From Asterionella formosa (Eukaryota), in contig NKIB01014467.1 of NCBI GenBank assembly GCA_002256025.1, forward strand, positions 1-43,093: a stretch of 43,093 bases of DNA, given 5' to 3'. A model generated the notes under the pieces. It made no database searches, was not told where the DNA came from, and saw only the letters and a program-made list of their open reading frames with translations. The translations under genes were made by a program, and so were the position numbers. Below are positions 127 through 42,103 of this stretch, one piece after another (positions within the stretch are counted from its first letter, which is position 1; every line of letters begins with the position of its first letter).

Positions 127-457
127 TTATGGCTGTGCGCAAACGCGGTGATGATTCATGCTGTTTTACCTACAGCCGGGTACTCGTTGGAATTTAAGTA
201 GCTATGATACCATCTTCTCGGTTGATGGCAACAGAATTTTACCGGTATGGTAGTAATAAATGTACCGGTACTGGGGAACGGTATCAGATACCGGAGGTAC
301 CTGGTCAAGAAAAGAGTCGAAGAGGTCCAAAACGCATTCTCCGGTGTCGACAAATTCTTCTTAACGTACCCGGTATGATGATTCGGCCGGCCAGCCCCCA
401 GATCTTCTCAGAAGTCAGTTCTTGCGTGTATCTACTGTACCGATAGTGATAGTGCCA

Positions 458-478
458 GGTACCTGGTACCTGGTACCA
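458..478. repeat. GGTACCW heptamer tandem repeat (3 units)
   Basis: GGTACCT GGTACCT GGTACCA read directly from the sequence. Confidence 0.9.
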
Positions 479-920
479 GTCTAATTGTTTTAAATTTATA
501 CTGTGCGTACTTACCACTTACCACACTTGTATGCATGCATCAAGAATTACTGTACATTTAACCCAACGTAAAATTCTAATAGGTATTCCATATTAGCAAT
601 ACAGGATACATACCGTAATGATTACGTTGCCCCCGGTACTTTGTGCTCGTCAACTGGAGGGGTGATATGGCTATGCGGCTGTATATACGGTATTGCTCTT
701 GATATGACTGTGAATACAGATGCACATTTACCGTATATTACTAGATTACCCGGTAGAAGAAGGTTCATTGCTTCGATTTCCAGCAAATCATCATACCGGT
801 ACCCATTGATTGTCCTCCCCCCTAGATCCACTCATTGCCGTTGGGATCCCTGCAAGTTGTCACTTGCAACAAGCCCTTACTTTATTATCGCGAAGATATT
901 ACATTGAACTACATTCTGTC

Positions 921-934
921 GTGTGTGTGTGTGT
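921..934. repeat. (GT)7 microsatellite
   Basis: gtgtgtgtgtgtgt read directly from the sequence. Confidence 0.8.
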
Positions 935-1148
935 GGCCGAACGATTGATCTTGCCGCCACGCATAAATACGCATCCGCCCGCCAGTACTCGGTCCTTCTT
1001 TCGTGGAAGCCCGGGTTCCTTGCAAGGGCTGGAACAATAACACTGGTACAACTCTAATTGTACAAGCAACTCAGCGAACCAAAATTTCATCAGAATCTGT
1101 GAGCGGATCATCAATCAGATCGACCAATCGTTTAGTGGCATATCAGGA

Positions 1149-4100: not shown

Positions 4101-4341
4101 ACTACAATTTGAATTTCAGACTGCCGTGACACTCAAGGGTAGCTTCTTTGGTCCAGGCCGCACAGTTGGCGATGGTGAGCGTAAGTTGTATCTTCATTTG
4201 GAAGCCAAAACAGAGCAGATTTTGAAGAATTGTGTCCTCGAAATACGAAGGCTCCTGAACGAAGAAACACTCCGGGTGAGCGCTAGACAAGCAGGTGGTG
4301 GGGTAGGTGTGTCGTCCCACAAGTATAGTGTTTTAAGTTAG
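1149..4341 (+). CDS. PRP5: DEAD-box RNA helicase Prp5/DDX46 (U2 snRNP / branch-point recognition); 2 exons: 1149-2551 and 2751-4341
   Basis: Q motif (PFPVQAQCIP), AKTGSGKT, PARELA, TPGR, DEAD, SAT, GRGLD and HQVGRTGR. N-terminal RLEAW, DALDKFM, and C-terminal EINDYPREARWKVT are typical of Prp5/DDX46. Intron 2552-2750 (GTGAGT...TTGCAG) joins the two ORFs in frame (HLNLK|STAVYGG). Confidence 0.93.
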
Positions 4342-4439
4342 ATATAGTATAGTGCTTATACAAATGACTTCAATGTACAACCACTCAGAACGAACAATCT
4401 TCCTTATCAAAAAATATCTATTCGATGTCTAACAATACT

Positions 4440-5387
4440 TTATACATTATTTTCGCTAGTTTGTTGGGCCCTTCGTTCTGCCGCTTCCAGCATGGCTGCC
4501 TTGGCATCCGTCTTTCCTCTGGAGGTGCTACCCAGTGTTCGACCTGATCCTGCAAATGCAGGTGTACTAACAGTTGGTGGTGATGTGTTGGTAGAAACAC
4601 CACTACCCGAAGGCACAGCGGTCATTCCAGTGCTACTACCGGTACTGGATACCCCATGATCTCCTGTCGCAGCATGTCCGACCACCCATCCTTCGCGTTG
4701 CGTAAAGTTGACTAGAATTGACTCTTCCCATTGACGAAACCTTGAGGGATTGACTTTGAGTCTGTCCAAGTATCCGTAACCATAGGCATATCCAACACCA
4801 ATAGAAATCAAGTATCCAGCAAGATTCCCCCCTCCAACCAGCATAAACAATAGCCAGATTGCCAATGGATAGTACAGTGTGGGTACTTGGAAAAAGAATA
4901 ATTTCCGTTGTTCATTTGCAGGTGCTTTGGAGCATTCGGAGGCGATGATGCCAAAAAGGACGGTCCATATGCCTGAGCTCTGCCACCAAAGATAGCCTTG
5001 GTCGTTGGAAGCAAACGATAGTAGTAGACATAGGCAGCAAAAGATCAAATTGGAGATGAATGCAATGGTGAGCAGGAGCCAAGCAAAGGCGGTCGATCCC
5101 AATGAATGCTCCAATCGTTTTCCACTATCCAAAAAGCTTAGATACGCAAAGATCAGACTCAAAGTGCTCTGACAAACAAGTGGACTCAAGAGAAGACGGT
5201 ATATTTCGAACCTGTAGATTGCAAAGTGGGGTATAGTGTCGAGGGCGTATGATGCGTCAAGAAAGAAAGAAAGGAACCAAGAGCAAAGGAGAGTTGTTAG
5301 GGTGTATCTAGTCACTAACGGTGTATCTCGCACGAAGGATTCATAAGCAGACAGAATAGGGTTGGGAGGTGGGGGACCAGATGACAT
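4440..5387 (-). CDS. Rhomboid-superfamily (Derlin/rhomboid-like) membrane protein, probably catalytically inactive, with a C-terminal p97/Cdc48-binding tail
   Basis: TPLVTR start, EIYRLLLSP (WR-like loop), LEHSLGS and about six hydrophobic helices. Tail contains FAGSGRTLG (SHP-box-like) and KAAMLEAAERR (VIM-like). Confidence 0.8.
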   Translation of the reverse strand: MSSGPPPPNPILSAYESFVRDTPLVTRYTLTTLLCSWFLSFFLDASYALDTIPHFAIYRFEIYRLLLSPLVCQSTLSLIFAYLSFLDSGKRLEHSLGSTAFAWLLLTIAFISNLIFCCLCLLLSFASNDQGYLWWQSSGIWTVLFGIIASECSKAPANEQRKLFFFQVPTLYYPLAIWLLFMLVGGGNLAGYLISIGVGYAYGYGYLDRLKVNPSRFRQWEESILVNFTQREGWVVGHAATGDHGVSSTGSSTGMTAVPSGSGVSTNTSPPTVSTPAFAGSGRTLGSTSRGKTDAKAAMLEAAERRAQQTSENNV

Positions 5388-6306
5388 GGCTTATTAATTG
5401 GTAGGCGCCTTTCTCTTGCTTGTTGTCGTTGCAAGTGAGCACGTCTCAATCTCTGAATTAAGAAATCCTAATAGCTGTTGATCGCTTTTAGATTCGATTC
5501 CATCTCGTCACAATCACTGGAAGTAGCTACCTGGTACCGGTACATACCTTGTACAACAACCACAAAAGGCAACCGTCTTTATGATATGGGAGTCATGATC
5601 ATGCCGGTATACGCAGTATACAGTACTATCGAATCTCTTTATGTGAATATCTTCATACCGGAATATATATCATAATCCTATGTATTTTATTGGTTGTTAC
5701 ACCATATCTTTTGTTCATCACAACTGAGCATGTTTCTTATCATGATAAAAACCATGTTATGTCGTCATTGCGTTCCTCCAATTCAAGTTTTGATCATAGG
5801 AGCGAGGGCTTGCAACAGCTGGCGTCAATACACAAATGTCGCATACTGGTATAGTATGTTGTACATATGTGCCCACCACCAGGCGAAGTGGTGCAACATC
5901 AGCTGCATCCAACTGGCTGTCTCGCATCATCATCACAATAATCATCGCACCATCTTTTCAATAAATACACTAGACCTCCGGTATGCACGTACACTACATG
6001 ATAAGCAAATCATAAAATTGAAAGGTCCGCTACGATCATTGCATTGCCATGATGACAAATGGTTATAGCCATCCTTCCATTCGAATTGCTTGCTAGGTCA
6101 CGATATAATTTGATGCTACTTTCTTGCCATGCATGCTTCGAACCAGACACCATTGAGAGTTCTCGATCATAGGAATACTACGATATATATATATATTGAT
6201 GAATTGAAATAGGTCTGAATCCGAGTCCAATAACTGATTGTTGTTTGTTGTTCCAACGACCGTAGACTTAGCTCAAACAACCCGATTCTGTTAGCTTGGC
6301 TGCAAG

Positions 6307-9036: not shown

Positions 9037-9628
9037 TGCATACAACTTGAGTAGCCAAGGGAACATCAAGTTGTTAAAAATCTGTGATAAAATAGTAACC
9101 ATTTGAGTAATCTTATTTCCATAAGCAACCAAATACATTATGTGCAAGTGGACACAAAAAAGACATCGCCTCATCCAGATGAGATGAGATAATTGATTTC
9201 CATGGTTGTCAATTACATTCATAGAACAGAATCCCGTTATGATAGCTATAATAACTAATACATGTTTTGGAAATAGCACAGTTTCGTGGTCATGTCAAGA
9301 GTTCGATCCTGAGGAATTTTTCACGGGCATTGCTGGCAGTACCAGGTACCATGTACCGTATTCTACCGGTACGTTGAAGTCTACCGGTATTTATGTATTA
9401 TATTTGTATGTACCCCTATTCATAATTTTATATTCCAGGTAAACCGTAGGCAGTTTCATCCATTTCGACACAGCCGAGTTCCCGTTCCAACTGAATTGGA
9501 TTTGTTATCGTCAGTGCGGCAGGATGATGGCTGATATTTTCCAAAGGAGAGTACCAGGTACTGTATATCGGTAAAGGTATATTTTCCTTGGACTTGTCGA
9601 GGTAATACATTCCCATTTGCCAACAACC

Positions 9629-12307: not shown

Positions 12308-12410
12308 GCTATGTGAGCGTGGTGATAGGGACCCCAACGAACAACGGAGTTGAAGCCACACGTAGTGAAGGTTTAATGGTTTTTAATCATAAAATTTCGC
12401 AGCCAATCTA

Positions 12411-16966: not shown

Positions 16967-17503
16967 GGCTCCCTGTTGAAATCGGAATAGAAACGAATAC
17001 TGCACTGCTATGAATTGTTTAGATTTCCAACAAGAAATTAGCTACCGGTAAAGCACTTTGATCTCAACCATGTGGACTATGAAAATATGATAGCTAAAAC
17101 AATACATGTCGTCTGCTACATAAGGTAGTACAGGGACTCTACATAGCACTCCGAGCAATACACCTGGCACTGGTACCAAGGAATTTTGGGTAGACCACCT
17201 TTTTACTTAGGAAAATATTTAGCTAAATAAATCGATGGCCAGACCTTCCAACAGGTCCCTGACATACCTGCAGCAGAGGTCGTAACAATATATACCGTAT
17301 CGGTATGTACAGATGAGTGTAAGCAAAATGCATCAGTAAATCCCACGACAATTTACTCCATTTAATTAATCTACAGATGAGGATTGCATTTATCATCATT
17401 GCGCTCACTATTATCTACGTGTCATCCTCATTGCTCGGTGTTGACATCAATTAGCTAATTGGTCACCCTGTTCATATTACGACTTGACTGATCCACCATC
17501 ACC

Positions 17504-21540: not shown

Positions 21541-21602
21541 GGTATGTAGTCCCGGCAATGTTGGCTTGGCGCAGCCATGTGTATGGGTGTGCTATCATAC
21601 AA

Positions 21603-21637
21603 GGTACCTGGCACCAGGTACCAGGTACCAGGTACCA
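21603..21637. repeat. GGTACCW heptamer tandem repeat (5 units)
   Basis: GGTACCT GGCACCA GGTACCA GGTACCA GGTACCA read directly from the sequence. Confidence 0.9.
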
Positions 21638-22178
21638 ATGGAACACACGTACGACAAGCCTTTTGACAAACTACCGGTAAGTGAGACGTGGTTTAAATAT
21701 TTCGGAACAAGGACACTTGTTTTATTTTCGAACGATTGACTTTGCTCAAAAGCAAGGGGGTCGGACGCTTTACCGGTAAATGCACTCCCTTGTGCATGCA
21801 TTCCAGCATACAATAGACTACCGTATATACCGGTAGACTACCGGTACCGGTATGTTGGTTTATCAGTCGTGAAGTTTTGATCCCAATCGTTCATTAGTGT
21901 TCTTAATCTGGTGTACCAGGTACCTGGCAACAACCAGAACGTAGTGTACATACCGGTACGTATTATTGATTGAAACGTGATAATGCAGTGTCAAAGCCGA
22001 GCTACAGTTTACATACACAGTACCGGTAAACACTGTTATACTCTTCCAACATTTTATCACAGATTAAGTATAAGTACATGTACAAGAAAGTGAATCATAG
22101 TTTATCCGTCCTCATAAACGGTTCGCATCAAGCGCAACGACAAATAAATCCTATCCTCATTCATTCACATCAACATTC

Positions 22179-22967: not shown

Positions 22968-23326
22968 TTTCTATGCTTAATATGATCATTATCTCCTCCT
23001 CAGTTCTAAGCATATCAACACACCAAATGTAGGCATAAATCTTGTGTACATCAAATACTGAACTAGATAAAAATTGGGGTACCAGGTAATCAATCAAAGG
23101 AATTGTAATCATGCCTATGTCCATAATGCAGGATTGTATGAATAGTTTCAACTTCTGTATTTCCTTATGTATCTGCTGGTTGTTGAAGGGTGGTAAAATT
23201 GGAGGTCCTCATGGTAGACCCATACAACACTGCATACCATGCTTGTATTTGTGTGTTTATAAACTTGTATTTGGAAATGAGCAGAACTTGTTTGTTATTT
23301 CACTTATTGTCTTGCCTTTTGTTCTT

Positions 23327-23387
23327 GGGAATGGTTTAGTGGTTAGCACACCTTCTGCGGTGGCGGGTTCAATTCCTGCACTTTCCA
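23327..23387 (+). pseudogene. tRNA-derived element (tRNA pseudogene or SINE head) with Pol III A and B boxes
   Basis: A box TGGTTTAGTGG (23332-23342) and B box GGTTCAATTCC (23366-23376). T-stem GCGGG/CCTGC surrounds TTCAATT. Partial acceptor GGGAA/TTTCC. The anticodon/variable region is too short for a functional tRNA. Confidence 0.55.
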
Positions 23388-26291: not shown

Positions 26292-26350
26292 TTAAGCAAA
26301 TTGACTCTACCTTAAGCAAAACTGCTTTAAGCAAATCTACTTTTAGCAAA
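26292..26350. repeat. Cluster of four TTAAGCAAA-like direct repeats
   Basis: TTAAGCAAA three times plus TTTAGCAAA, at about 15-20 nt spacing; TCTAC precedes two of them. Confidence 0.6.
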
Positions 26351-27781
26351 AAAATTCAAACTAAACAAACATTATAACCGGTGGTTCTTAATTCATTTGC
26401 ACATGCTGTCTAAGTCATTACAGAAGGAAATTGAGTGACCACTGGTACCCCCGTACCAGGACACTCCTGTCGGCACATGGATGGCTTGCCAAGTAGAATC
26501 TACCCGGTTTCATATGTAGCGGTACATAGGAATGGGTTGCTCCATATTACTACGACTACAGGGCATTTCCGGCAGTTTTGACGATATCATACACTGGAGC
26601 AAATGCTTCATATTTGCCGGCTTCCACAAGGACTATACACAAATTGCCCATTCGCAATAAATCAATTCTAGTAGTAGATAATAGACTTATTTCACATCTT
26701 TTGCTTGGATTATTCATGTTAATACTGTAGTCCTAGTCTCATCTGTTTTGTAGTTACTGTAAAAGTGCGCATCACAGGAGTAGGAAGTGAGCAATCTTGC
26801 GTATCAATACAGATGCATATAGGGTTAGCGTTATAGCCTATAAATCAGAATTCAATATTGAGAGAACTCGACTAACAGCCACCTATTGTACACTTTGGTG
26901 TCAGTTAAGAGAACGAGTTGTACATCAAGATTAACTAATAAGCTCATATATTCAACAAATACTACTACCGGTACTCCTAGTTAGATACTTCAGGGAGCAC
27001 TCAGTTTGATAAAGTACCCGGGTACATTAAACTATGCATTGTACTATTCCGCTACTGGTACCAGGTACTTAAATTATTCAAACGTACGACATTTCAATAT
27101 GGGTACCGGTATTTCTTTTCAGGCTTTTTTACACAAAAAGCCTACCATATATGTCTTGTGAAAATCGAGCTGAGTGAACAGAAGGAAAAGAACAGAAGTG
27201 ACGCTGAATTATACATATTTATATAGGCGATGTGCCACAGATGCGAACACAAACTAGGAGGGGGTCACGTCTCAACTGGAATGGCTGGTGCTGGGCACGA
27301 TTGTTTTCTACCTGGTGAGTTCACTGTCAGCAATTGTACCAGGTACCTGATGGTACCCACCCGGTACAGATGTAGAGCTATAAAATAAATAAATGGTTCA
27401 CAAAATCGATCAGCTATTCTATAGTGTCGGTACTGCTTGATTGGCAGTTGACAACCAAATTCTGTGTAAAATCCATCATGCGATTGCTTCATGGAAATTA
27501 TACATAAAATCAATAACAAATCACACTTATCAACGAACGAAATTGAAAGGAAAGCTATATATTGATCTTGACGAAAGGTATCGAAAGGAATACCTTTGGA
27601 AGATTATTTCTCGTCTGTCCCACATCAACTCTGTCAAAGGATTGGATCCCGAAAGTCAAGGTACGTCGAGTTGATTGGTGGTGAAAGGCATGATGGTGAT
27701 GAACGTGACGCTCGTTCCATTTTCATGCTCACGTACTGAAATAACAATCATTTTCGTCACAGATTGTTGCAAGACATTGTC

Positions 27782-29023: not shown

Positions 29024-31888
29024 CATGATGGAAGGTCTTCACTCAATTCCATAGCCACATCGAGTTTCTTGGAAGTGGGTGTAGTCGCTCGGCTGGAGGA
29101 ACAATTCTGACAACTGACCAACTCAATCATTCACTCGCGTATGTATGCAAAGGCATTGGATTTTCGAGACGTTTAGAAGGCAGTCAATTTGCATTGCTCA
29201 CATAACGCCTTGGAATGGTGAAACACCAGTTTGATGGAAAAGAACTGCATGGATAAGTGCTTGCTTTCCTCTTGTTATTCAAGGTTGCTTGCATACAGGA
29301 TACTTAGCCTACAAATAGGTTCTTAGGTTGTTACATGTCAAATTCTCCATTTTTTCTCAATGTTTCTTGCTTACACATACCGAAATTCATTATTAGAGTA
29401 CCAGCAGTGTTCTATTCCAGTCTAGTTTTAAATAGTTTGAAGTTCTTGTTGGAATGCTATCAAGTATTGTAGGCGCTCTCTAAGTTGCTTGTAGTTGATT
29501 GTTCAATCAAGGGATAAGGAGGAAAAGGGAAAAAGTGTGCCAGCTGCCGAAAATATGGAGGGCAAGATCAGCAGCCGGCAAGAAAGCCAGCAATCAGCAT
29601 AGGGAGAGAACCTTGTAGCTACAGCATCACCTGAGCAGAGGAAGCCTCCCTGTATGATTTCTACTCTCAATATACTGATTGATGCAGCAGGACTGCAGAA
29701 TGAGGTTATGCGTAGTAGCAGCAAATTGGAGAAAATAGCAACTCCAGGATATTGTGTTGGCTTATCTATTTCACTGAACCTTGATCAGTTCGCCCACGTC
29801 ATAAAATTCGAAGTGTACATTGACATCAGAGTGATGCTCAGCGCCAATAGCAACAGTTAAATCTACAAAACTGGAGTAAAGACGACTTGGAGCACACTTG
29901 GCTATATATTTAGCATATACTTCAACCATGCAAATTTTTTAACTATTAAAATTTTACCAAACTTCTATTTGTTTTATTTACCATGCTGGAACCCATTTGG
30001 CATTTAGTATGTGGCGCGCCTTTCTGGGATAAGTCGAGATATCCGGTTTCTGAGAATGTTCAAAATCGACAAATTTCTGGAGAATTGCAAAAACTTTTAA
30101 TGTATTCCTTTTACGCATGTTTTCCATGTATGCCTCTGAAATTAGATCTTGGCAGCAAGTTTAGGTGCTCATTTGTTAGCTTTCTCTGCTGTTCTACAAT
30201 GGGAACTCAATGCTACTGCAGACTTACTATCACGCCATGATACAACTCCCTAAGTTTATAAACCCACTCTTTGCTTTATTGGAGTTGGCCTCAGCTCTCT
30301 CTACAGCTTGCAATACGGAAATAGTCGAACTTCTCTCTAAGATCAGACAATTTGATCACATTGATTTCACTGCATTAGATTCTGCTTTGATTACTAGAGT
30401 TCCCATGAAGGTTCTTACCGACCCATCCCATCTAGATTCTGCCATCTCACCAGAAAGGTGCATCACACAACTGCCACTCTACACCCGCCCAACTCCTGGC
30501 CTCCAGCCATACTAGTCTAGATTGTCACACCCTGAAAGCCGCTACAGTACTAGCTAAATACTTACTACTGGACACAGCATCACAAATCCATGATGCACAC
30601 NNNNNNNNNNNNNNNNNNNNNNNNNNNNNNNNNNNNNNNNNNNNNNNNNNNNNNNNNNNNNNNNNNNNNNNNNNNNNNNNNNNNNNNNNNNNNNNNNNNN
30701 NNNNNNNNNNNNNNNNNNNNNNNNNNNNNNNNNNNNNNNNNNNNNNNNNNNNNNNNNNNNNNNNNNNNNNNNNNNNNNNNNNNNNNNNNNNNNNNNNNNN
30801 NNNNNNNNNNNNNNNNNNNNNNNNNNNNNNNNNNNNNNNNNNNNNNNNNNNNNNNNNNNNNNNNNNNNNNNNNNNNNNNNNNNNNNNNNNNNNNNNNNNN
30901 NNNNNNNNNNNNNNNNNNNNNNNNNNNNNNNNNNNNNNNNNNNNNNNNNNNNNNNNNNNNNNNNNNNNNNNNNNNNNNNNNNNNNNNNNNNNNNNNNNNN
31001 NNNNNNNNNNNNNNNNNNNNNNNNNNNNNNNNNNNNNNNNNNNNNNNNNNNNNNNNNNNNNNNNNNNNNNNNNNNNNNNNNNNNNNNNNNNNNNNNNNNN
31101 NNNNNNNNNNNNNNNNNNNNNNNNNNNNNNNNNNNNNNNNNNNNNNNNNNNNNNNNNNNNNNNNNNNNNNNNNNNNNNNNNNNNNNNNNNNNNNNNNNNN
31201 NNNNNNNNNNNNNNNNNNNNNNNNNNNNNNNNNNNNNNNNNNNNNNNNNNNNNNNNNNNNNNNNNNNNNNNNNNNNNNNNNNNNNNNNNNNNNNNNNNNN
31301 NNNNNNNNNNNNNNNNNNNNNNNNNNNNNNNNNNNNNNNNNNNNNNNNNNNNNNNNNNNNNNNNNNNNNNNNNTGCAGAGGAATCCGAAAAATGGTGGTA
31401 TCGCTGTCTTCTTCCTAGACTCTCTCTGCTCTGCCTATGAAGTAGACCCAATGGGGCTGACTGGCAAGCTGGCTTGCAATGGCGAGCATTGCATCATACT
31501 GCCCCGGTAGTGTAGCCATCTGCAACATAGACATTGAGGCTCATCATGTATCTGTATACATCACCCGGATAGTAGGTGTTTGAGTTGAAGTTTATGTGTT
31601 TTTCTCCTCCCGCCAATTCCATCCTCATTTATAAAATTTAAAACTCTAAAAAGCATTATCTCACATGACAACTTATCACACTCACCCATTTTTCACGATG
31701 ATGTAAACCAATAGAACAACCATGCACAGATTAGTGACTTTACTAGTCAATCAAGAATTCCAAATATCTCAAAAATCCAAAGCATTCTTATCTAGTAAGT
31801 GATTTGTCATGACGAATGCAGTATTCTCACAATAGTGCACAGTTCAGGATTCAGAGGTTCTCGCATAGGCTGCACATGTCCACATTGT

Positions 31889-34800
31889 CTACCTGTAGTA
31901 TATTTTGACTTCTGGGAGAGTAACACTCCCTTGTTCGGACATCGCTTCGCCCAGCTCTTCATCCCTTTGCACTTCAAGATTCGGAGGTCCTCTAACCGGC
32001 TGCCCATGTCCGACCCGTTTAAGAATCGCTCCTGCTGCAAAGCAATATTTCTGATGACCGGTAATTATATCAGTGACATCAACATTTTCCACTCCTGGTA
32101 AATCTACGACACAAGTTCCACACACTTTCTTAAAGCTCATGCGTTTGTATTGGAACATGAGCGATAAAATCAAATCTTTTCTGGAATAGCAATTTACGAG
32201 GCGCCCAGCAACAATCTGCCGACAAGCTTTCCAGCTTCGTATGCTTAGGTGATTGGGCGTTCCCATCAAAATCACATCTTCCACTATGCTTGCAGGCTCT
32301 CGCATGTGCTCTAGTTCGGGGTTTGTTTTGTAGGGGGTCTTGGAACCTTCCGATTCAGACTTTCTCTCTCGTTCCTCCTCCCATTTCTCTTGGTACTTTG
32401 ATAGCTCCTTTAGGCAGCTATAGATAGTTCGAGCCCCCATAGAAAATCCAACCAGCGTTACAGGGCGATGTCCAGCTCGACTAAATAACAGACTTTTGGC
32501 CAATTCTTTCCCTGCCGTATCTGCACGCTCAGCAGCAAGGGTCCAAGTCCCATCAATCAAATCTGCCGCCTTGACAAGTGCAACAGGAAATGCCACTGCA
32601 GTTACCAAAGTAGCAAAAATAGTTGCCTTCAGGATATGCTGCGTTGCATTACTGACAATATCGATCGCTAAGTCCTCCACTGAGTTACAGAGCTCCAAGA
32701 GAAGATTACTCTCCCACTTGATTGTATATAACTCGCCTCCATACTGAGCTTGATAATCCCAGACAGTAGCAAGGTGAGGTGGCGATTCCCACTTATCTCC
32801 TGTTCCTTCACTTGTAGACGGATGCATCGACTGCGAAGATGCCGATGGGTTTGATTCCATACTCTCTAATTCAGGAGAGAAATCCCTTTCAATTGGAGCA
32901 TTATGGACTTCATCAATCATATCTGCAAAACTCAACCGTTGCAAGCCGTCGTTTACTTCTGCCTTGGGCTTCCGAAATCGCTCTCTCCACCCGTCTCTCA
33001 TCTTTTCGAAAGGAGAAGCTGAACCATATTTCTCATGTGGACCTACGGCATAACCAAGCTCGACAAACAAGTTGTGAATCGCCTCTTTCTGGTCAAGAGA
33101 TAACGACGCACGATACCTTGGGCCATCATCGAGAGGAAATAGGTGATCTGGATCACAACCATATTTTTCTCTCAAAAGTCGCCACAAATACTTTTCTTCG
33201 CCTCTCCACTTATACAAAATGTGATGACATTTGGGAGTGTGATCTGGCTTGTGAATGGAATAGAATCTTTCCAATAGCTCTAATCCATCGTCAATCCTTG
33301 GGTTTGTAGGCATCACACCCCATGGTCGTTGAAAGTCGCACGTGTCTCTGAGCCAGCCAGAAATGCAAATCGTAGTGAAAAGTTCTGCTTCGATTGGGGC
33401 AGCTATGGATCGGCCGTCAGCTCTACGAATGAGACCACTTTCTTTCTTGAATTCAAACTCTGTCAAGCCCTTGGTTCTACGCTGCATTTTATAAGCGACA
33501 AGACCAGCGCCCCCAACCCCAAATATGGATGTTACAGCCGCAGTGCTTGTCAATGCAACGATCGCTGCACTGGCTGTTCCACCTGCCAACGCAGCGCACC
33601 CTGCTGCAATACCGGGTGCCACTAGACCTCCCGTAAGGGCCATCAGACCACCAGCGACGATACCAGCTCCACCAATTTTGAGGCCTCTAATCACATGATC
33701 CCGCGACAATGTCACTGTAAAGCGGCCGTTCGCGGTTTTCGTTGACATCCCTTTGCGTTTTGCAAGGTCTTGTTCGGTAGTCGATAGCTCAAGAATTTTA
33801 GACGCCACCGCATGCTCTAAGGATTCGTATTTACGTGTTGCTCGCTCCAGCAAAATACGCCGATTCCACTCCTGATCCTCAGGACCAAGGTTCTCTGTAT
33901 CCCGTTCCATTTCATGAACGAAAATAATGACACCCAACTTCTTAAAGACATGTCGGATTCGGGCATCATATCCTTCTGCATTTCGTAGCAAATGCTGAAG
34001 TAAGATAAGCGATAAACAACGGAATCCAGATCCTGGAGATAATGACTCCAAGAATGGTCGAAGAACGTCATCTTCGTCGAGCTCCTTGATGATGTCCTGT
34101 TTGTCGTCAATAACAACTTTACTGTCGTCTGTGAACAATTTTCTTCGTTCAGATGCTTTCTTTTTATCGCTATCTTTAAGCGGAACCAATATTTTCGATA
34201 GCATAGGAAGGAATGCCCTAGATTGTGCTGGGTCTAAGAAGAGCAAGTCCGCTGACTTCACCAGAATATCAGTCAGAACTTCATATCGTCGTTGACGATG
34301 CCGCTGAAGCGCAAGTTTGTCTTTTCTCGCGTCACTTCGTGTCCAAAGCTCGTGCATTGAATTCTGGGAGAGGTTAGTTGAGGGAGGGGGTCTCCGAGAT
34401 GAGTCATCTTCTTCGGAGTAGTTGCTGTTGCTGGCCTGCCGAACAGATTTGTGATCCATCTGTTGCCGTGAACGATAATTAATCTTTGTCTCCGATGCAA
34501 TGGAGTGTCCATTTCTGCTCTCAGTATCCTCTTCTCCAAAATCATGATTACTGCTCCAACTGCTGGAAACGGCTATCTCATCGTTGTCTTCTTCGCCTTC
34601 ACGCCCATCGAGATAAGCCATGGATTCTGTTGAATTGTCGGTTTCCCCAGAAACGTCATAGTCATACGATGACGCAAGGACTGCAGCTAAACAACCTATG
34701 AATCGTTTTCTGTCGTCTTCTTCGGGAAAGGCAGGAATTTTTTTGGTTTGCAAAGAGCGAAGAGTAGGAGACAACAAAGTGGGTCGGGGGCGATCACTGT

Positions 34801-35035
34801 TGACTGAGTCATCGTCGTCTGATACCATCGAATTTGGGGCATCTAACACAGATTTCGCAGCCGATAGAAGCAACGATTCTGTATAGGATGCGGAATCTTC
34901 AATGGCATCCCCATTGACGCTGCTGCTTTCTGCCAAAGGATGATCAGATACTCCTCGCTGTTTCCTCAGAATCGCCTGCGTTTCTGTTGAAGAATTCATT
35001 TTGGGAACGTTGCGTTCGCTTCCGTTGCTGCTCAT
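31889..35035 (-). CDS. TMCO4/DUF726-family protein (transmembrane segment plus alpha/beta-hydrolase-like domain)
   Basis: GYDARIR, Gly/Ala-rich ALTGGLVAPGIAAG, RRTKGLTEFEF, ISGWL, IDGTW..A.ERA..AG..LA..L, RPVTLVGFSMGAR (GxSxG), VAGRLVNCYS..D.IL, VENVDVTDIITGH..Y. Confidence 0.9.
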   Translation of the reverse strand: MSSNGSERNVPKMNSSTETQAILRKQRGVSDHPLAESSSVNGDAIEDSASYTESLLLSAAKSVLDAPNSMVSDDDDSVNSDRPRPTLLSPTLRSLQTKKIPAFPEEDDRKRFIGCLAAVLASSYDYDVSGETDNSTESMAYLDGREGEEDNDEIAVSSSWSSNHDFGEEDTESRNGHSIASETKINYRSRQQMDHKSVRQASNSNYSEEDDSSRRPPPSTNLSQNSMHELWTRSDARKDKLALQRHRQRRYEVLTDILVKSADLLFLDPAQSRAFLPMLSKILVPLKDSDKKKASERRKLFTDDSKVVIDDKQDIIKELDEDDVLRPFLESLSPGSGFRCLSLILLQHLLRNAEGYDARIRHVFKKLGVIIFVHEMERDTENLGPEDQEWNRRILLERATRKYESLEHAVASKILELSTTEQDLAKRKGMSTKTANGRFTVTLSRDHVIRGLKIGGAGIVAGGLMALTGGLVAPGIAAGCAALAGGTASAAIVALTSTAAVTSIFGVGGAGLVAYKMQRRTKGLTEFEFKKESGLIRRADGRSIAAPIEAELFTTICISGWLRDTCDFQRPWGVMPTNPRIDDGLELLERFYSIHKPDHTPKCHHILYKWRGEEKYLWRLLREKYGCDPDHLFPLDDGPRYRASLSLDQKEAIHNLFVELGYAVGPHEKYGSASPFEKMRDGWRERFRKPKAEVNDGLQRLSFADMIDEVHNAPIERDFSPELESMESNPSASSQSMHPSTSEGTGDKWESPPHLATVWDYQAQYGGELYTIKWESNLLLELCNSVEDLAIDIVSNATQHILKATIFATLVTAVAFPVALVKAADLIDGTWTLAAERADTAGKELAKSLLFSRAGHRPVTLVGFSMGARTIYSCLKELSKYQEKWEEERERKSESEGSKTPYKTNPELEHMREPASIVEDVILMGTPNHLSIRSWKACRQIVAGRLVNCYSRKDLILSLMFQYKRMSFKKVCGTCVVDLPGVENVDVTDIITGHQKYCFAAGAILKRVGHGQPVRGPPNLEVQRDEELGEAMSEQGSVTLPEVKIYYR

Positions 35036-36698
35036 TCTTAAATGGAACGGTTCAGGAGCTCAGCACAACTGCTAATTAGGGACGTCAGATGGTCGGGAAG
35101 CAGAGAGCAGGCTACTTATTTGATATCTACTTGTACTCCGATATATTCTTGTTTACGGCAACGCGTTCAGTAATAATGGACTAGACTACCGTTACATCCT
35201 CGTGATATGGTAATGGTCAAATATTTGCCTGCGCTCGGCCCAATCTACCAGTATGTTCTATACAAAGGCCTACGTAGTCGTCGTGTGTGTACAATAAAAT
35301 GAGTTCGTTTATCTATATAAATATACACGGTATATGCATAAGAAACGTTTTCCCGGTACCAGTNNNNNNNNNNNNNNNNNNNNNNNNNNNNNNNNNNNNN
35401 NNNNNNNNNNNNNNNNNNNNNNNNNNNNNNNNNNNNNNNNNNNNNNNNNNNNNNNNNNNNNNNNNNNNNNNNNNNNNNNNNNNNNNNNNNNNNNNNNNNN
35501 NNNNNNNNNNNNNNNNNNNNNNNNNNNNNNNNNNNNNNNNNNNNNNNNNNNNNNNNNNNNNNNNNNNNNNNNNNNNNNNNNNNNNNNNNNNNNNNNNNNN
35601 NNNNNNNNNNNNNNNNNNNNNNNNNNNNNNNNNNNNNNNNNNNNNNNNNNNNNNNNNNNNNNNNNNNNNNNNNNNNNNNNNNNNNNNNNNNNNNNNNNNN
35701 NNNNNNNNNNNNNNNNNNNNNNNNNNNNNNNNNNNNNNNNNNNNNAATATGTATGGGGATGGTGCATTGTTTGCTTTGGCTGTGCGTTCTTTTTGTTATG
35801 ATATCATTCTTGCTTCGACTAGGTAGATCTAACGGTAGTTACCTTACATACTATATCTGTATGTATTGTAGAAAACCAAGTTGCTCCATTGGTACCTACC
35901 GTAGCTACGTACATATTACGTAGTTTCTGGCAGGCTCGTATGTAGTACTAAAAATGATCAAAGGAGAACGTTTTGGTTGTTTGTTGTCATTGAAAGCACG
36001 GTCATGCCGCTTTGCCTTTTTTTCTTCGTAGAGTTATGATATTTATGTACACTGGGCCTTACTATAAACCTAAACCATGAATTTCTCCCTTGGCGGTTGT
36101 TGGTAAAGAAATGCACGCAAGGCTCTCACATCAAGGGACGACCGACGATACACACCGAGGAAATATTTTGTAAACAGAACCTCGACAATTTTTGTGAGAA
36201 ATGTAATATACATTCAGCATCGAGCTGGATGTACCGGTATGATAAACCTGTGAAGGGTTTCGGAATACCTATTACAAGGCAAAGTGACTTCCCACGCAGC
36301 AGCCATTAAGTCCAGCAAGGACCACATGTGCACCCAATCAGATGTGAATGCATGAACTACCGGTATACATAGTTTTGACTGCCTACTGGTACCGTAAAAC
36401 AATCAAAATGGAGCAGTTGCAGCTAGACAAGAAGTCTACAATACCTACTGGGATACCGGTACTCTCGCTCTGTGGAGAGCTCGAGATGGCACAGCAACTC
36501 TGGAGTATAATGGGCTAGATTGTCAGTTTTCGGCGTACTGAGCCGCAGTAGAACTCCTTCATCGAATCTATAACCCTGCATTTTCCACTTGTGCTGTTCC
36601 ACTCAGTGCTGGGTACAATGCAATACTTTCCACCACGGGGAACTCCAAGGTTCAATCATAACACTCGATTCGACCTTGTCAAGATCCTCGCCATTACA

Positions 36699-37671
36699 TC
36701 ATATCAATTCTTGAACAAGTAGCAACCGAACTCCTCTCAACAACAGTCGACCTCCATTTGGGTCGTTATCGGATGCATAGACAGCTGATGCATCATCCGT
36801 GGCTTGCAAAGAGTCGTCAGACCCATCATCGTCGCCAGTGACAGCTGTTGCAACCTCATCGCTGTGACTTGAATTTTCGACGAAATAGTCATCGTCTCTA
36901 AGATTGCCACGAGAATTGCCGCCTGTACTGGAGCTTGCATGTTCATTGTTGATTCGAATTGACGTTGTGACAACAAGATAGACCAGTAAAAAAATTAACA
37001 TTCCGATCAATGTGACTTCAATGCCCCGACGAATGTGTTTAGGGAGGCATCCACAAACAGGACAAGCAGCTCCATATGCTGAATCATGGGGTGTCCACTC
37101 ATCTTCACTGAACGATTCCACTGTCATTTCATCTCCTTTGGTCGAGCCACCTTTAGATAAATTGGATACCTTGTTCCATATACCGTCGCCGCGTTTGGTT
37201 GATTTTGGAGCCGGCTGGGGCACTTCAGCCGCAATCGACTCGGCCTTTGGAACGTCGGCAGTTGCTGCTACATTGTTTGCGGAGTAAATATTCATGACGT
37301 CGCCATAGTACGGGTTCGTGTTGCTGTCAAAGCTAGGATGAGATTTGTTGCTTCTCAGCCAAGGTATTCTATTTTCCCAGGACATGCCTCCGGATTTAGC
37401 GGAACACTCGTCAATGTCCGGTTGTGACATGGTTGGAGACAATGATGCAGCCGGCGAGGTTCTCACAAAGGGTCCTCGTCGTCGGCGTCGCGTTGGTGGG
37501 GATGATGCCGGTGGTGGAGGAGGTTCCAGCTTCAACAGCGGCTTCTCATTGTAGTCGGAGCTTTGCTGTTGGCTAAGCAGTGTTTCTTGAAAGCTGATTG
37601 CGGGATGCACGGGTTTTTAGTCACTTGCTCAAGGAACTTACTAGCTGACTCGATTCGATACCCACAGACAT
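36699..37671 (-). CDS. Uncharacterised single-pass membrane protein; predicted exons 37671-37642 and 37565-36699
   Basis: The long ORF lacks an ATG at its 5' end. A 76-nt GTAAGT...CAG intron (37566-37641) joins an upstream 10-codon exon MSVGIESSQL in frame. One TM segment (IEVTLIGMLIFLLVYLVV) follows AYGAACPVCGCLP, and the C-terminus is Asp-rich. Confidence 0.65.
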
Positions 37672-38443
37672 TCTCACCTTGATTTCATCGTTAACACACT
37701 CAGAGGGTTTGTGGTTCTCTTGTTGACATGAGACAAAGTGCCATAGGTTTTGAACCAGAGAGCCTATAAATCCTCTTGAACTGAGTTTTTTTTTAAGTCT
37801 ACAACTGTAATATATATACCGGTTATGTGTTGTGGAACATTCAACTCTATGTCCAATGCTGCGCAGAAGTACAACCAACAAAGCAATGCAACAGGAACAA
37901 ATGAAATAATGATCATAGCAATATAAGACATACCGTGTACCCGGTATACCTTCAGCCGGTGGAACCTGGTACCAGTACCGTACGTACTGGTAGGATACCA
38001 GGTACCGCTCCCCGCTGTATGACGGCAGAACAATAAGGACGAAATCTCATCCTCAAGAAATCAGCCCGAGTCGTGTACCTGTTCTACCAGGGTACCTGGT
38101 ACCCTTCTACGGTAATGTACCACGTATGCATGTACCCGGTAGTCTACAAAGCTACCGCAAACACAGGTACTGGTAATGTAAGTGGTGCCTGGTGGAGTAC
38201 GACAAGACCTAAAATCCCTGCCTTGGCTGCAGTCTAACGGCCAATGTGACGGGCTGGTGTGTCGTGCGAATACTTTTGAATTCACTGGCCTTCCACCACC
38301 TTGTAACTGCGACATACCCGCTTTCCTTGAACGGTCCGTTCAAACGAGCCTGTCGGACTCGACGAGAGATCACGCCGGCCGACGAAGCCAAAACCCACCA
38401 AGCAGAATGATCATGTGTCAGCCACCAGGAACGGAGGAGTACT

Positions 38444-38461
38444 GGTACCTGGTACCTGGTA
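38444..38461. repeat. GGTACCW heptamer tandem repeat (about 2.5 units)
   Basis: GGTACCT GGTACCT GGTA read directly from the sequence. Confidence 0.85.
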
Positions 38462-38948
38462 ATACAACCGGTGAACTCGTCCTTACCGTACATACGACTA
38501 AAATAAACATACCGGAGGGAGATGTGGTATGTACAGGACTGATCCTGTGGTTAATGCTAGTCTACATACCTACCAGACGTGACCATTTTACTGGCGTGCA
38601 TAGAAATGACAGAACGGTACATGCATTCCGGAATTATGATAAATACCGTACATTGAAGTAGACGCTAGTATAAAGTACGGTATCGTTGAATGGCATTTAG
38701 TCATAAAAGTACCACAAAATACGTAGAAAACATCACTTTTATCGTATTCTTCGTATACTTAGAAAGGACATTTCGGTATAACATTTAAAAAAGCATCATA
38801 AAGTCACCGTTCATTTTCACCAGCAGCACATCCTCAGCACTGTCATCGTTGGAGTGGTGCCTGGTACTGTACCAGGCACTATGGGTAGCGGTAGCCACTG
38901 ACTCACAATCGCCTACCGGTATAGCAAAAGAAATTGTACCGTAGAACC

Positions 38949-40072
38949 ATGTTGTTCCAATCATCCAACCCAGGGTACTACGGCACAACCGCCTTCTTAC
39001 TCTTTAGCCCGCTGTCTGTCATTTACACAGCCTTGTCCCATGTTTGCTTTGCCTGCCTGGGGTCACTCAAGATTCAGGATGTGCCGACCGAGTCCATTGG
39101 GACTGAAACGCCACACGTCCTCAACAAGAAAGTAGCCATTGTGACTGGAAGCAACACTGGTATTGGGTTTGAAACGTCCAGGGCATTGGCTGATCGCGGG
39201 TATGAGGTTATTTTGGCGTGTCGATCTCGCGATAAGGCCATGCTTGCCGTTCGCCAAATCCCAAATGCTGTCTTCTTGCATCCTCTGGACCTGTCCTCCA
39301 AGGAAAGTATTGAAGAATTTGCTACTGTCGTCAAGGCAAAGTATTCCACCATTCATTTACTTGTAAATAATGCGGGTCTGAATACCTCGGGACGACTAGA
39401 AGGAGGTCTTGATCTATGTTTTCAAACCAACTTCCTCGGCCACTTTTTGTTGACGGGACTCTTGCGTCCAGTGCTATCGTCAACAGGACGTGTGGTCAAT
39501 CTGTCGTCTGTGATGCATCATTTTTCAGATGTTGAAGAGAAAGATGAAAGATATTGGCGACGTTGCACACTCTATAATGAAAAACAGAGCACGTATACAC
39601 CTTCTAAATTGGCAGCACTCTTGTTTACAATAGAATTGAACAAACGGGGCATCAAATCCTACGCAGTGAATCCAGGGGCTGTGTGAGTACCGGTATACCA
39701 ATACTCTGTGGCCAGACGTTCCTTTTGGTCTTTCACTAACTTTCTCACTATCTACCATACAGAAATTCGGACATTTGGAGAGGGTTTCCTCGCTGGATCA
39801 TTCCCATCTTTTCGTTACTTTACATCAACAACGCACAAGGCGCATTCACATCGATTGCTGCTTGTTTATGTGATTTCGATTCGAGTGTCATATACCTTCA
39901 ACCATACTGGCTGCCTTTTCCCAAACGCCCTGCCTTTCCTCCAATGGAAATGCTTGGACCCTTTGTGGGCTATGCCGCCACTGCACCAAGGTTGCCAGAC
40001 ATGGATGGTACGGCGGCTGCTGCCTTGTGGAAGGTGAGTGAAGAAGTAACAGGGTATTATACCAACAATTGA
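38949..40072 (+). CDS. Short-chain dehydrogenase/reductase (RDH12/WWOX-like); exons 38949-39682 and 39763-40072
   Basis: TGSNTGIG, LACRS, LDLSS, NNAG, TNFLGHF, NLSS, YTPSK. Intron 39683-39762 (GTGAGT...CTAAC...CAG) gives VNPGAV|NSDIWR, and exon 2 ends ALWKVSEEVTGYYTNN*. Confidence 0.9.
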
Positions 40073-42103
40073 TGAATCGTAATGCATACATGTCGGCAAC
40101 CTTTTGATTTGGCAAAGATCTGTGTTGGTTCCCTCTGAGAAGAAATAAAGTTGTATCATCTGCACTGTAGGGGGTTCAAAGCCACATTGGAAGAAATTAT
40201 CTGCTCTTGGTATTCACATGCACTTGGAAACGTTGGCAACCTACTACCGGTACAGTTGTTGTTCTGGTGCTAATTGAGAAAGTAGCTGCATTTGTCTCAA
40301 TGTCCCTGGTATCATTTGCCTTTTGAATATGCAGTGTGCTTCTTACAACATGTTGTGCAATTATGGCTCCAACATTGGCACTTTGATGCGGCCTCTGCTA
40401 TTGGCACTTGCTATCATATGATCTATGTATAGATAAACTAAAAATATTATAAGCATCAGGCAAATGATCTTCTACATACCATTATGCATTTTCGTAAGAA
40501 GTGCAATGACAGGCGCATGAACCAACTCCATGATGACCACTTTGCTTAACTGTTCCATTTCCATGACACAAAATACCAACATAGTATACCAGTAGTCAGT
40601 CTATGTATCAAAGTATGATGCATAATTAAATATTTCACTTAAAATAATTATTCTAATCTGGTACCTCAGGTAGCATGATGATTCTAGCTAAATGCAATAG
40701 ATACAAAGTCAAATANNNNNNNNNNNNNNNNNNNNNNNNNNNNNNNNNNNNNNNNNNNNNNNNNNNNNNNNNNNNNNNNNNNNNNNNNNNNNNNNNNNNN
40801 NNNNNNNNNNNNNNNNNNNNNNNNNNNNNNNNNNNNNNNNNNNNNNNNNNNNNNNNNNNNNNNNNNNNNNNNNNNNNNNNNNNNNNNNNNNNNNNNNNNN
40901 NNNNNNNNNNNNNNNNNNNNNNNNNNNNNNNNNNNNNNNNNNNNNNNNNNNNNNNNNNNNNNNNNNNNNNNNNNNNNNNNNNNNNNNNNNNNNNNNNNNN
41001 NNNNNNNNNNNNNNNNNNNNNNNNNNNNNNNNNNNNNNNNNNNNNNNNNNNNNNNNNNNNNNNNNNNNNNNNNNNNNNNNNNNNNNNNNNNNNNNNNNNN
41101 NNNNNNNNNNNNNNNNNNNNNNNNNNNNNNNNNNNNNNNNNNNNNNNNNNNNNNNNNNNNNNNNNNNNNNNNNNNNNNNNNNNNNNNNNNNNNNNNNNNN
41201 NNNNNNNNNNNNNNNNNNNNNNNNNNNNNNNNNNNNNNNNNNNNNNNNNNNNNNNNNNNNNNNNNNNNNNNNNNNNNNNNNNNNNNNNNNNNNNNNNNNN
41301 NNNNNNNNNNNNNNNNNNNNNNNNNNNNNNNNNNNNNNNNNNNNNNNNNNNNNNNNNNNNNNNNNNNNNNNNNNNNNNNNNNNNNNNNNNNNNNNNNNNN
41401 NNNNNNNNNNNNNNNNNNNNNNNNNNNNNNNNNNNNNNNNNNNNNNNNNNNNNNNNNNNNNNNNNNNNNNNNNNNNNNNNNNNNNNNNNNNNNNNNNNNN
41501 NNNNNNNNNNNNNNNNNNNNNNNNNNNNNNNNNNNNNNNNNNNNNNNNNNNNNNNNNNNNNNNNNNNNNNNNNNNNNNNNNNNNNNNNNNNNNCTGTTAG
41601 GGTACGTCAGGGACCAGATAGGCTGTAGATATAAACAACAATGTCACAGAGATTGATTGTAATCATTCCTAAAAGTTTTAATAGAATTATGGTTTTCCAG
41701 ATTGTTTTCGAATTCTGATCTTGATATTCTTTTGTTTCATTTGATTTAGCATATATATGCATGTATGTAGGTAGGTAATTTCATGTCATACCGTGACGTT
41801 TGTATTGAAATAATTTCTCGTCATTGTTCGCTCACATCATTCATGTAAGAAAAAAAGTAAATTCTGATTGTTTGATTCTTTGAACCATTCAGTAGGTAGA
41901 TCTCCTTCTTCCACAGACAAGCACGCAAGAGCACATGATCACCAGCAGAGCGAGTTGCTTCGAAGTAGAAGACACAACTTTTGTTCTTGTCATTCAATAA
42001 AGTCTACAGCAAGTCGTCAAAAAAATACTAGGACGGACGAAAATAGTTTTGTCAAAGCAGCAGCGCCGACTATTGGCAGCGATTCACTCACAACAAAATT
42101 GCG

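Follow-up and report, generated by a model that had tools for sequence, protein, structure and literature searches.

The question raised by this locus is why a single 8-bp palindrome, TACCGGTA, should be the commonest 8-mer of a stretch of diatom DNA. The window, by which we mean the whole stretch of 43,093 nt from Asterionella formosa that was analysed, contains 23 exact copies. All 23 starts listed in the earlier note check out, as does its estimate that chance would supply fewer than one copy: dinucleotide shuffles of the window held a mean of 0.25, and none of 100 reached 23. The spacer variants said to co-occur with the palindrome are likewise present in the window (TACCWGGTA 15, TACCSGGTA 4, TACCGTA 11, TACGGTA 4). 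The 68-Mb genome assembly holds 28,528 copies of TACCGGTA compared with 1,718 for the reversed word, used as a control, and 26,886 copies of TACCWGGTA; together the two types amount to ~55,000 exact copies, 0.5% of the assembly. The density of TACCGGTA is 417 per Mb overall and 515 per Mb in non-CDS DNA. A sample of non-CDS DNA totalling 435 kb contained 224 copies, where Markov models of orders 1 to 6 predict 2.1, 4.5, 17.7, 75, 166 and 212; the count lies above the prediction at each order, the fourth and fifth named in the earlier note included, and the high-order expectations are inflated because their sub-words are mostly the motif itself. No look-alike stretches were found in the other genomes compared, and among the literature matches listed, whose coverage leaves out most subscription papers, we found no report of TACCGGTA or of mass footprints in diatoms.

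Within the window, 17 of the 23 copies lie within about 1 kb upstream of the first ATG of an ORF, and the copy at 4637 is the only one in a CDS, as had been noted; CDS and gene starts come from an ORF-based annotation in which gene starts are rough. The features are as follows, the word scar anticipating the origin argued for below.

240..801, no strand: scars clustered upstream of a gene resembling DEAD-box helicases (family from its motifs); exact TACCGGTA at 240, 263 and 794; TACCWGGTA chain 460-475, TACCSGGTA 367 and 747, TACCGTA/TACGGTA 611, 686 and 729.
4637..4644, no strand: TACCGGTA inside the CDS of a minus-strand Rhomboid/DUF1751 gene, in frame in a low-complexity linker (...S-T-G-S...).
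5528..5542, no strand: chain of mixed type, TA-CCTGG-TA-CCGG-TA, lying upstream of the Rhomboid gene at 145 bp from its start.
9340..9560, no strand: scars upstream of a WW/TH1 gene; TACCGGTA 9364 and 9382, TACCAGGTA 9340 and 9552, TACCGTA 9354.
17043..17050, no strand: TACCGGTA in the divergent gap adjoining an ABC-transporter gene.
21619..22028, no strand: most crowded of the clusters, with a DUF6824 gene 160-560 bp downstream; TACCGGTA 21672, 21771, 21828, 21839, 21845, 21951 and 22021, with 21839/21845 forming a tandem TA-CCGG-TA-CCGG-TA; TACCAGGTA chain 21619-21634, also 21914.
26788..26992, + strand: solo LTR (TG...CA, 205 bp) of an abundant LTR-retrotransposon family, with a degenerate 5-bp duplication GGAAG/GGGAG.
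26966..26973, no strand: TACCGGTA inside the solo LTR, the key site, at which paralogous LTR copies were compared.
27059..27345, no strand: upstream of a RING-finger gene; TACCAGGTA 27059 and 27337, TACCGGTA 27104.
36232..36461, no strand: TACCGGTA triple 36232, 36358 and 36454, 1.2-1.4 kb upstream of a minus-strand gene starting near 35035.
37938..38921, no strand: scar-paved divergent gap; TACCSGGTA 37938 and 38133; TACCWGGTA 37996, 38093, 38446 and 38453; TACCGGTA 38914, 35 bp before the SDR start.
39688..39695, no strand: TACCGGTA at intron position +6 of the SDR gene (GTGAGT..., about 39683-39762, read from sequence; SDR by Pfam).
40245..40252, no strand: TACCGGTA downstream of the SDR (short-chain dehydrogenase) gene.

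The assembly is fragmented (15,436 contigs), and a library or assembly artefact, or the break-up of a single dispersed TE family, therefore has to be considered; the earlier note had named both as possible undoings of its reading. We regard the chance of either as close to nil. The window copies of TACCGGTA have no flanking sequence in common, the motif avoids CDS and decays by graded mutation, and few differences separate the window from the contigs of four independent runs that span stretches with the motif, in an alignment dominated by repeats and with 324 indel rows beyond those considered here. A run X3 contig over 21501-23356 is 6 bases shorter, the gap lying somewhere in the stretch, and differs at just 3 further places. 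Runs X7 and X17 belong to two studies, and their contigs (40127-40700 and 39747-40479, respectively) both carry 6 gap letters somewhere in the aligned stretch. The copy at 40245 is possibly polymorphic, and a metagenome pattern scan for its empty allele gave 0 matches. When metagenomes were scanned for related diatoms, with the SDR protein as query, a single 3.4-kb contig was obtained, at 39% identity, and was set aside.

How the palindrome arises can be read from homologous copies, by which TACCGGTA enters DNA whole, as a clean 6-bp CCGGTA insertion at a TA, also inside LTRs. Only 42 of 304 distinct sample sites have a homologue and are testable; an empty two-letter homologue was found at 15 of the 42 (14 TA, 1 TG) compared with 14 of 319 control TA-N4-TA sites, and at 11 of 38 once the LTR position was merged. 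Same-length substituted homologues occur at 15 of the 42 and are mostly decayed copies, while one site, L116:149 (homologues TACAGATA), looks point-derived. Some copies lie within transposable elements and multiply along with them, family 1 (see below) having one. The in-frame copy at 4637, for which no empty allele was seen, is probably a 6-bp scar as well. Among the testable sites of TACCWGGTA just 1 of 11 had an empty homologue, and among those of TACCGTA 0 of 9; the assignment of these two classes therefore rests on flank matching.

At the TA homologous to window position 26966, 529 paralogous LTR copies are plain and empty. The filled pattern gave 7 matches, of which four are TA-CCGG-TA scars, two are unrelated and one, in LTR copy L159, is a CCG-ended pogo element whose first ~70 bases are identical to the family-2 end described below. 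One homologous TA thus exists empty, element-occupied and scarred, at this single site and with L159 a paralogue rather than an allele. The 6 letters are also absent at 26966 in the aligned contigs of all four runs. A tree of 37 LTR copies rejects the six scar copies as one clade (p-AU 6e-33); the nearest row of a scar-bearing copy is an empty copy in five of six cases, and in the sixth an empty copy ties with the element-bearing one. We also considered the TA at 26966 as a special hot spot and rejected this, 4 of 534 copies being close to the non-coding average of 7 per 1000 TA.

CCG-ended pogo elements that duplicate TA are resident in this genome and young. There are 93 DDE_1 matches, and a search of the genome for the DDE_3 (Tc1-type) family gave 0. 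Family 1 has 79 exact TIR ends. Of its 33 distinct flanks, 30 carry TA next to the end, and three of its copies are complete (TA-CCG...CGG-TA); the family 2 end reads TA-CCGTATAC. The transposases of both families are DD35D, so that DDE_1 with DD35D, TA duplication and short TIRs are all present in the source elements, DD35D being common also to Fot/Fot-like elements and so not Passer-specific. Family 1 has a second ORF without a Pfam match, and in the family-2 ORF scanned (open at the 5′ end) DDE_1 alone was found. The element ends that were counted are scarcer than the scars by two to three orders of magnitude, a point against a footprint origin. Scars reach 3.0 per kb in the 150-bp flanks of CCG elements versus 0.91 in non-CDS DNA, and the flank log-odds of scars and of CCG insertion sites agree with r=0.50 over 32 cells that are not independent. 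In human cells Passer also prefers TSS-proximal TA, and its excision leaves 0-4 bp (PMC9976928).

These comparisons lead us to conclude, with high confidence, that TACCGGTA would be the repaired donor site of cut-and-paste transposons of the pogo superfamily (Passer-like, DD35D) with ends starting CCG. In origin it is in all likelihood something other than a dedicated DNA signal, though a factor may putatively bind the scar secondarily. The last option of the earlier note, the footprint of a sequence-generating process, is the one borne out by whole 6-bp insertions at TA, and the process can be named as pogo-type excision. Excision would leave element-derived 3′ overhangs CCG on both flanks, a length taken from Tc1/mariner chemistry. 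The overhang-terminal CG dinucleotides could then anneal, and fill-in would give TA-CCGG-TA; a full 3-nt overlap would give TACCGTA/TACGGTA, and a 1-nt overlap TACCSGGTA. A second, CCAG-ended family would give TA-CCWGG-TA, and, with a preference for GG-TA-CC, each of its scars would rebuild two targets and so lead to (CCWGGTA)n chains. Scars would pile up upstream of genes, where elements insert and CpG decay is slower, and would afterwards decay about neutrally.

Footprints of this general kind are well known, Minos leaving one of 6 bp. Tc1/mariner excision produces 3′ overhangs that NHEJ converts to footprints in which the initial or final 2-4 nt are flanked by TAs, as in TACAGTA/TACTGTA of Sleeping Beauty (PMC6943129), and the Tc1 footprint is TACATGTA, as cited in PMC3520976. 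The footprint hallmark, a TA duplication around bases equal to element ends, is found here with the resident ends TA-CCG and TA-CCAG. Like the canonical footprints, ours consist of TA, terminal element bases and TA, inserted at a TA; unlike them, they have a core of 4 nt that is palindromic, as self-annealing of CG overhangs would produce. Nor is the scar a rare laboratory event here: it is the top over-represented word, with self-targeting chains and a promoter bias.

The CCAG-ended family, for which no transposase was identified, inserts at GG-TA at 13 of 20 distinct ends (flanks were read for 22 of 41 ends). Against a background of 7%, GG stands directly before TACCWGGTA in 54% of cases, whereas for TACCGGTA the figure is only 9% and for CCG-element ends 5 of 42. 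Because the GG-TA target matches the flanks of TACCWGGTA, the CCAG scars would rebuild their own target and grow into chains: an existing scar is abutted by 7 of 20 CCAG ends, the sample contains 4 tandem chains of period 6 and 22 of period 7, and the chain flanks match CCAG-element targets. The spacer variants, which had been read as inverted half-sites with flexible spacing, are real, but they do not form one half-site motif; two element families that differ in the targets they prefer account for them, and the scar types number two or more. In principle the tandem units of periods 6 and 7 could come from local template switching or slippage (fold-back synthesis, microsatellite growth) without any transposon, and slippage could extend existing chains such as 21839-21852. 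As an origin we give it very little credence, since CCGG is what is inserted regardless of the flanking sequence, since no template for it is present next to 26966 (flank TACTAC-TA-CTTC), where an element with matching ends occupies the same TA, and since the chains share their flanks with CCAG-element targets. The LTR family, for its part, adjoins NNWGGTAC in 19 of 25 host junctions; as the maker of CCWGG scars it was rejected, its 5-bp duplication being expected to yield CCWGG-CCWGG and not TA-CCWGG-TA.

The distribution of TACCGGTA is strongly regional. For every 1000 TA, short divergent gaps contain 15.2 copies, convergent gaps 3.1 and CDS 1.0 (p=3e-6); by length, the density is 0.05 per kb in CDS versus 0.5-1.2 upstream of genes; the intron class, 2.4 kb only, is too small to inform. 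The elements share this regional bias. Upstream of genes the profile is flat, at about 1 per kb over 0-900 bp, with no positional peak, and the pair-distance histogram shows clustering and no nucleosome-scale period. All 12 strand-merged one-mismatch classes exceed expectation. The commonest neighbour, TACTGGTA/TACCAGTA (150 versus 11.6 expected), is the one that has lost the CpG, and paralogous pairs TACCGGTA/TACCAGTA exist. The view that the motif keeps its CpG thus fails as stated, although CpGs are lost less often close to gene starts (50:107) than in the remaining non-coding DNA (100:117). Expressed as a multiple of the exact count, the excess of non-CpG one-mismatch words is 0.99 near gene starts and 0.63 elsewhere. 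Judged by these counts, the scars are promoter-biased yet appear to decay like neutral DNA, CpG included.

The promoter bias could also be that of a site to which an abundant general regulatory factor, dimeric or of MYB type, binds, and which point mutation has created and selection preserved. In Phytophthora the identical word is a promoter motif whose sister palindrome is bound by a MYB protein (see below), and the LTR insertions by NNWGGTAC could reflect a tethering protein. We nevertheless consider such an origin quite improbable: the copies arrive as whole 6-bp insertions, LTR interiors included, the elements have the same bias, and the purifying selection and positional preference expected of a transcription-factor site are not seen, the profile being flat, the one-mismatch excess about equal to the exact count and decay near gene starts no lower than elsewhere. 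The whole insertions, the abundant one-mismatch neighbours and the missing nucleosome period likewise speak against the dimeric-factor, nucleosome and methylation-boundary origins put forward in the earlier note.

Its comparison with cyanobacterial HIP1 suggests a further mechanism. CCGG and CCWGG are methyltransferase targets in bacteria, and a methyltransferase together with methyl-directed repair might turn near-matches around them into the palindrome by substitution. HIP1 is, however, abundant in coding DNA too. Elhai 2015 (PMC4390886) ties HIP1 to cognate methyltransferases, proposes a substitution-based repair process and gives HIP densities of 500-2500 per Mb. The diatom motif resembles it as a single hyper-abundant 8-bp palindrome that occurs hundreds of times per Mb; its 417 per Mb overall and 515 per Mb in non-CDS DNA fall on either side of the lower limit of that range. 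In contrast to HIP1 it is TA-bounded, almost only non-coding and tied to transposon ends, and it is gained by insertion, as the empty TA homologues show; its CpG decays and is not restored, and its core length varies (3, 4 or 5 nt) in step with the element ends. A HIP1-like origin is accordingly very hard to credit.

Single-locus footprints are textbook knowledge; here footprints would be the dominant word of non-coding DNA, and therefore transposon traffic, not only point mutation, would write promoter sequence. Exact scars cover ~0.36 Mb, and more with decayed scars included. They would form a dated record of past transposition that outlives the elements, and they carry the caution that the top result of a promoter-motif search can be a scar. 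Taking a mutation rate of 5e-10, no more than some 1-2e-4 new scars per genome and generation would be required to keep 28,500 copies at steady state, or ~1e-6 per element if 200 elements are assumed. For the oomycete motif TACATGTA, Seidl et al. considered a footprint origin and dismissed it because of the motif's abundance and conservation (PMC3520976); since so low a rate suffices, the argument from abundance is answered.

The oomycete parallel is close. M94 of Phytophthora promoters is TACCGGTA (Roy 2013, PMC3597505), motif-9 and motif-1 TACATGTA were described by Seidl 2012 (PMC3520976), streme-5 is another oomycete promoter motif (PMC10031896), and PsMyb37 binds the sister palindrome TACATGTA (PMC11134190). 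The word is thus identical, palindromic and plentiful upstream of genes in another stramenopile group; the oomycete motifs are described there as transcription-factor sites, whereas the diatom word, by its homologues, originates by insertion. Oomycetes also carry PasserA-SAR pogo elements with DDE_1, DD35D, TA duplication and short TIRs (Gao et al. 2020, PMC7386202). In the part of Table S1 of that study that was compared, which comprises 15 of 47 Phytophthora places, CCG begins 9 of the 14 Passer rows from Phytophthora (CCGTA, CCGTC, CCGCA), and four diatom genera looked up in that table were absent from it. The diatom families share all of these features, CCG starts included, and are Passer-like in these respects; unlike PasserA-SAR, family 1 has its second ORF. 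We suggest, tentatively and with some doubt, that transposon excision could be a general writer of stramenopile promoter motifs, and that TACCGGTA (M94/motif-9) and TACATGTA in Phytophthora may be scars exapted as cis-elements. A transposon would then wire a regulon by the scar it leaves behind and not by carried sequence. The origin of M94 and TACATGTA becomes directly testable in existing Phytophthora genomes. Seen as exaptation, pogo scars would feed themselves upstream of genes, an LTR retrotransposon would land in CCWGG scars, and host factors would read the scars.

All 23 TACCGGTA starts that the earlier note had listed in the window proved to be exact copies, where shuffled windows gave a mean of 0.25 and a maximum of 3. 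In the 68-Mb assembly the palindrome, TA-CCGG-TA, occurs 28,528 times against 1,718 for its reversed-word control, and the sister class TACCWGGTA 26,886 times against 902. The non-CDS part of a 724-kb contig sample, non-random in that contigs were picked partly for a transposase or TIR match, holds 224 copies, where a second-order Markov model expects 4.5 and a fourth-order one 75; 224 of the sample's 781 CCGG sites are flanked by TA on both sides. The palindrome is a real, genome-wide feature. The contig itself is eukaryotic, gene-dense and intron-containing; its DUF6824 gene, of a diatom-typical kind, and its presence in lake-water runs would suit a freshwater diatom.

A well-supported explanation is that TACCGGTA originates by a known mechanism as the excision footprint, or scar, of Tc1/mariner/pogo transposons. 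This hypothesis was tested through its predictions of matching element ends, empty sites, target preference and neutral decay, and the palindrome matches such footprints in every feature tested; the likeness to cyanobacterial HIP1 proposed in the earlier note extends to abundance only. In Tc1/mariner excision the transposase is described as cutting the non-transferred strand slightly within the element, by a few bases; NHEJ then converts the resulting 3′ overhangs to 2-4-nt footprints flanked by TAs (PMC6943129). The assembly contains 93 DDE_1 matches and no DDE_3 match. Families 1 and 2, which start CCGTAAAACC and CCGTATAC, encode DD35D transposases; the young family 1 has 79 exact ends, with TA preceding in 30 of 33 distinct flanks, and three complete copies. 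A third family starts CAGTG, and a fourth, non-coding in its examined copy, starts CCAG and has 41 exact ends. Because the final two overhang bases of a CCG end are self-complementary, annealing and fill-in would yield TA-CCGG-TA, and mismatched overlaps of 3 nt and 1 nt would yield TACCGTA and TACCSGGTA, which are in lower excess than TACCGGTA in the sample (85 vs 36 and 17 vs 1.6). A CCAG end with a four-base overhang would give TA-CCWGG-TA through a Sleeping Beauty-type overlap. CCGG could alternatively arise from filled 2-nt overhangs joined blunt, and the data fit both routes. Besides its transposase, the family-1 pogo element encodes a convergent ORF (sampled stretch L031, 1346-1783, minus strand); its product of about 145 aa contains Cys/His residues and has no Pfam match.

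The most informative site lies in an LTR:

26788-26992: solo LTR, 205 bp, containing TACCGGTA at 26966

Six letters are left out at 26966 in four runs. The LTR family is abundant, with TG...CA ends, a purine tract 5′ of 3′ LTRs and LTRs of 195-205 bp; of the 24 copies whose two ends were located, 3 show 5-bp duplications and most of the remainder are LTRs within longer elements. Among aligned copies TA-CCGG-TA is present in 5 of 39 and plain TA in most, in a search biased toward filled copies. Genome-wide there are 529 exact matches to the empty pattern; the filled pattern has seven matches, namely four scars, two unrelated sequences and one copy (L159) in which a family-2 element begins exactly at the homologous TA. 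A single clade for the six available scar-bearing copies was rejected (p-AU 6e-33), so the scar has arisen more than once at this site. In a separate LTR copy (L001, reverse strand, near 566) a different TA bears a CCGGTA insertion.

Any homologue was available for 42 of 304 distinct TACCGGTA sites in the sample. A two-letter empty homologue was found at 15 of these (11 of 38 with the LTR position merged) vs 14 of 319 control sites; homologues were filled at 20 and substituted at the same length at 15, the last being mostly decay, with one site apparently point-derived. Of the 11 TACCWGGTA sites that could be tested, only 1 showed an empty homologue. Run contigs spanning 21501-23356, 39747-40479 and 40127-40700 have six gap letters apiece somewhere along their length, a sign that the scars at 21839-21852 and 40245 may be polymorphic. 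Window 30198-37424 is nearly uncovered by sequencing run X3, with deep coverage on both sides, and this may be sampling (about 63% of X3 was read).

Target preference separates the two scar classes: GG precedes 54% of TACCWGGTA (340 half-sites), 9% of TACCGGTA (447) and 7% of any TA. The element ends differ likewise: once two duplicates are removed from the CCAG ends read (22 of 41), GG stands before 13 of the remaining 20, vs 5 of 42 CCG ends (p=4e-5). Old scars adjoin 7 of the 20 CCAG ends. Since GG-TA-CCWGG-TA-CC contains two fresh GGTACC targets, insertion/excision cycles would extend (CCWGGTA)n chains, three of which lie in the window:

460-475: (CCWGGTA)n chain
21619-21634: (CCWGGTA)n chain
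38446-38461: (CCWGGTA)n chain

In sampled stretches L168 and L173, a CCAG-ended element is joined via a common TA to the apparent end of a related element.

All one-mismatch neighbours of TACCGGTA exceed expectation in the sample. The ratio of non-CpG one-mismatch excess to exact count is about 1.0 near gene starts and 0.63 elsewhere, on a background uncertain several-fold. Exact TACCGGTA shows no sign of conservation, as its per-position decay of 9-13% is close to the 9-14% predicted for a neutral steady state. The excess of TACTGGTA is five- to tenfold above other transitions; GG precedes 22% of its copies, and by this share about 30% look CCAG-derived and the remainder products of CpG decay. 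Close to gene starts CpG decay is reduced (50:107, vs 100:117 elsewhere; p=0.007). This agrees with the CpG retention that the earlier note had seen, but it points to local methylation and not to a protected motif.

Seventeen of the 23 window copies lie within 1 kb 5′ of an ATG. When every ORF of 150 codons or more is taken as a gene, gaps contain 15.2 copies of TACCGGTA per 1000 TA if short and divergent, 9.1 if tandem and 3.1 if convergent, compared with 1.0 for CDS, and density 5′ of the ATG is about 1 per kb, even across 0-900 bp. This promoter bias could stem from insertion bias of the elements, since CCG-element sites resemble TACCGGTA in their flank log-odds (correlation r=0.50) and scar density in element flanks is 3.3 times the non-CDS average; a comparable insertion bias is reported for fish Passer, a pogo-superfamily transposon, in human cells (PMC9976928). 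ORFs of at least 300 codons in the sample contain 7 copies vs about 1 expected (about sevenfold), mostly Thr-Gly in translation, which suggests that proteins tolerate two-codon in-frame scars. A probable in-frame example is at window 4637. At 39683-39695 a scar begins at intron +6 and takes in the T of the GTGAGT donor.

The same word is known from oomycetes, as Phytophthora infestans promoter motif M94 (PMC3597505) and as motif-9 (PMC3520976) or streme-5 (PMC10031896). For the sister palindrome TACATGTA, bound by PsMyb37 (PMC11134190), Seidl et al. recognised a Tc1 footprint and dismissed that origin over abundance and conservation (PMC3520976). Abundance is no objection, because under an assumed mutation rate about 1-2e-4 events per genome in each generation are enough to keep 28,500 scars at steady state. 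In Table S1 of Gao et al. 2020, 9 of 14 Phytophthora Passer rows examined (PasserA-SAR, rows 60-73) combine a CCG start, in the form CCGTA, CCGTC or CCGCA, with TA duplications (PMC7386202), so oomycete M94 may be the same type of scar as diatom TACCGGTA. Among the papers listed by literature searches, none reports TACCGGTA or mass footprints in diatoms. The scale is unusual for footprints, and the self-amplifying and cross-element features turned up in none of those papers.

The cross-element feature concerns the LTR retrotransposon, for which the copies bearing on junction preference are:

Window 26788-26992: the solo LTR
L107-L135, L018, L062, L005, L071: LTR copies in sampled stretches

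Host-side 3′ junctions read NNWGGTAC in 19 of 25 cases, including CCWGGTAC in 12 (two loci are probably related copies), and the 5 bp that solo LTRs duplicate are the scar core itself (CCAGG, CCTGG or CAAGG). The retrotransposon thus shows an insertion preference for TA-CCWGG-TA scars of a DNA transposon, and this targeting is the best hint that something recognises scars. The candidate routes are an integrase reading the scar sequence and tethering by a scar-bound protein.
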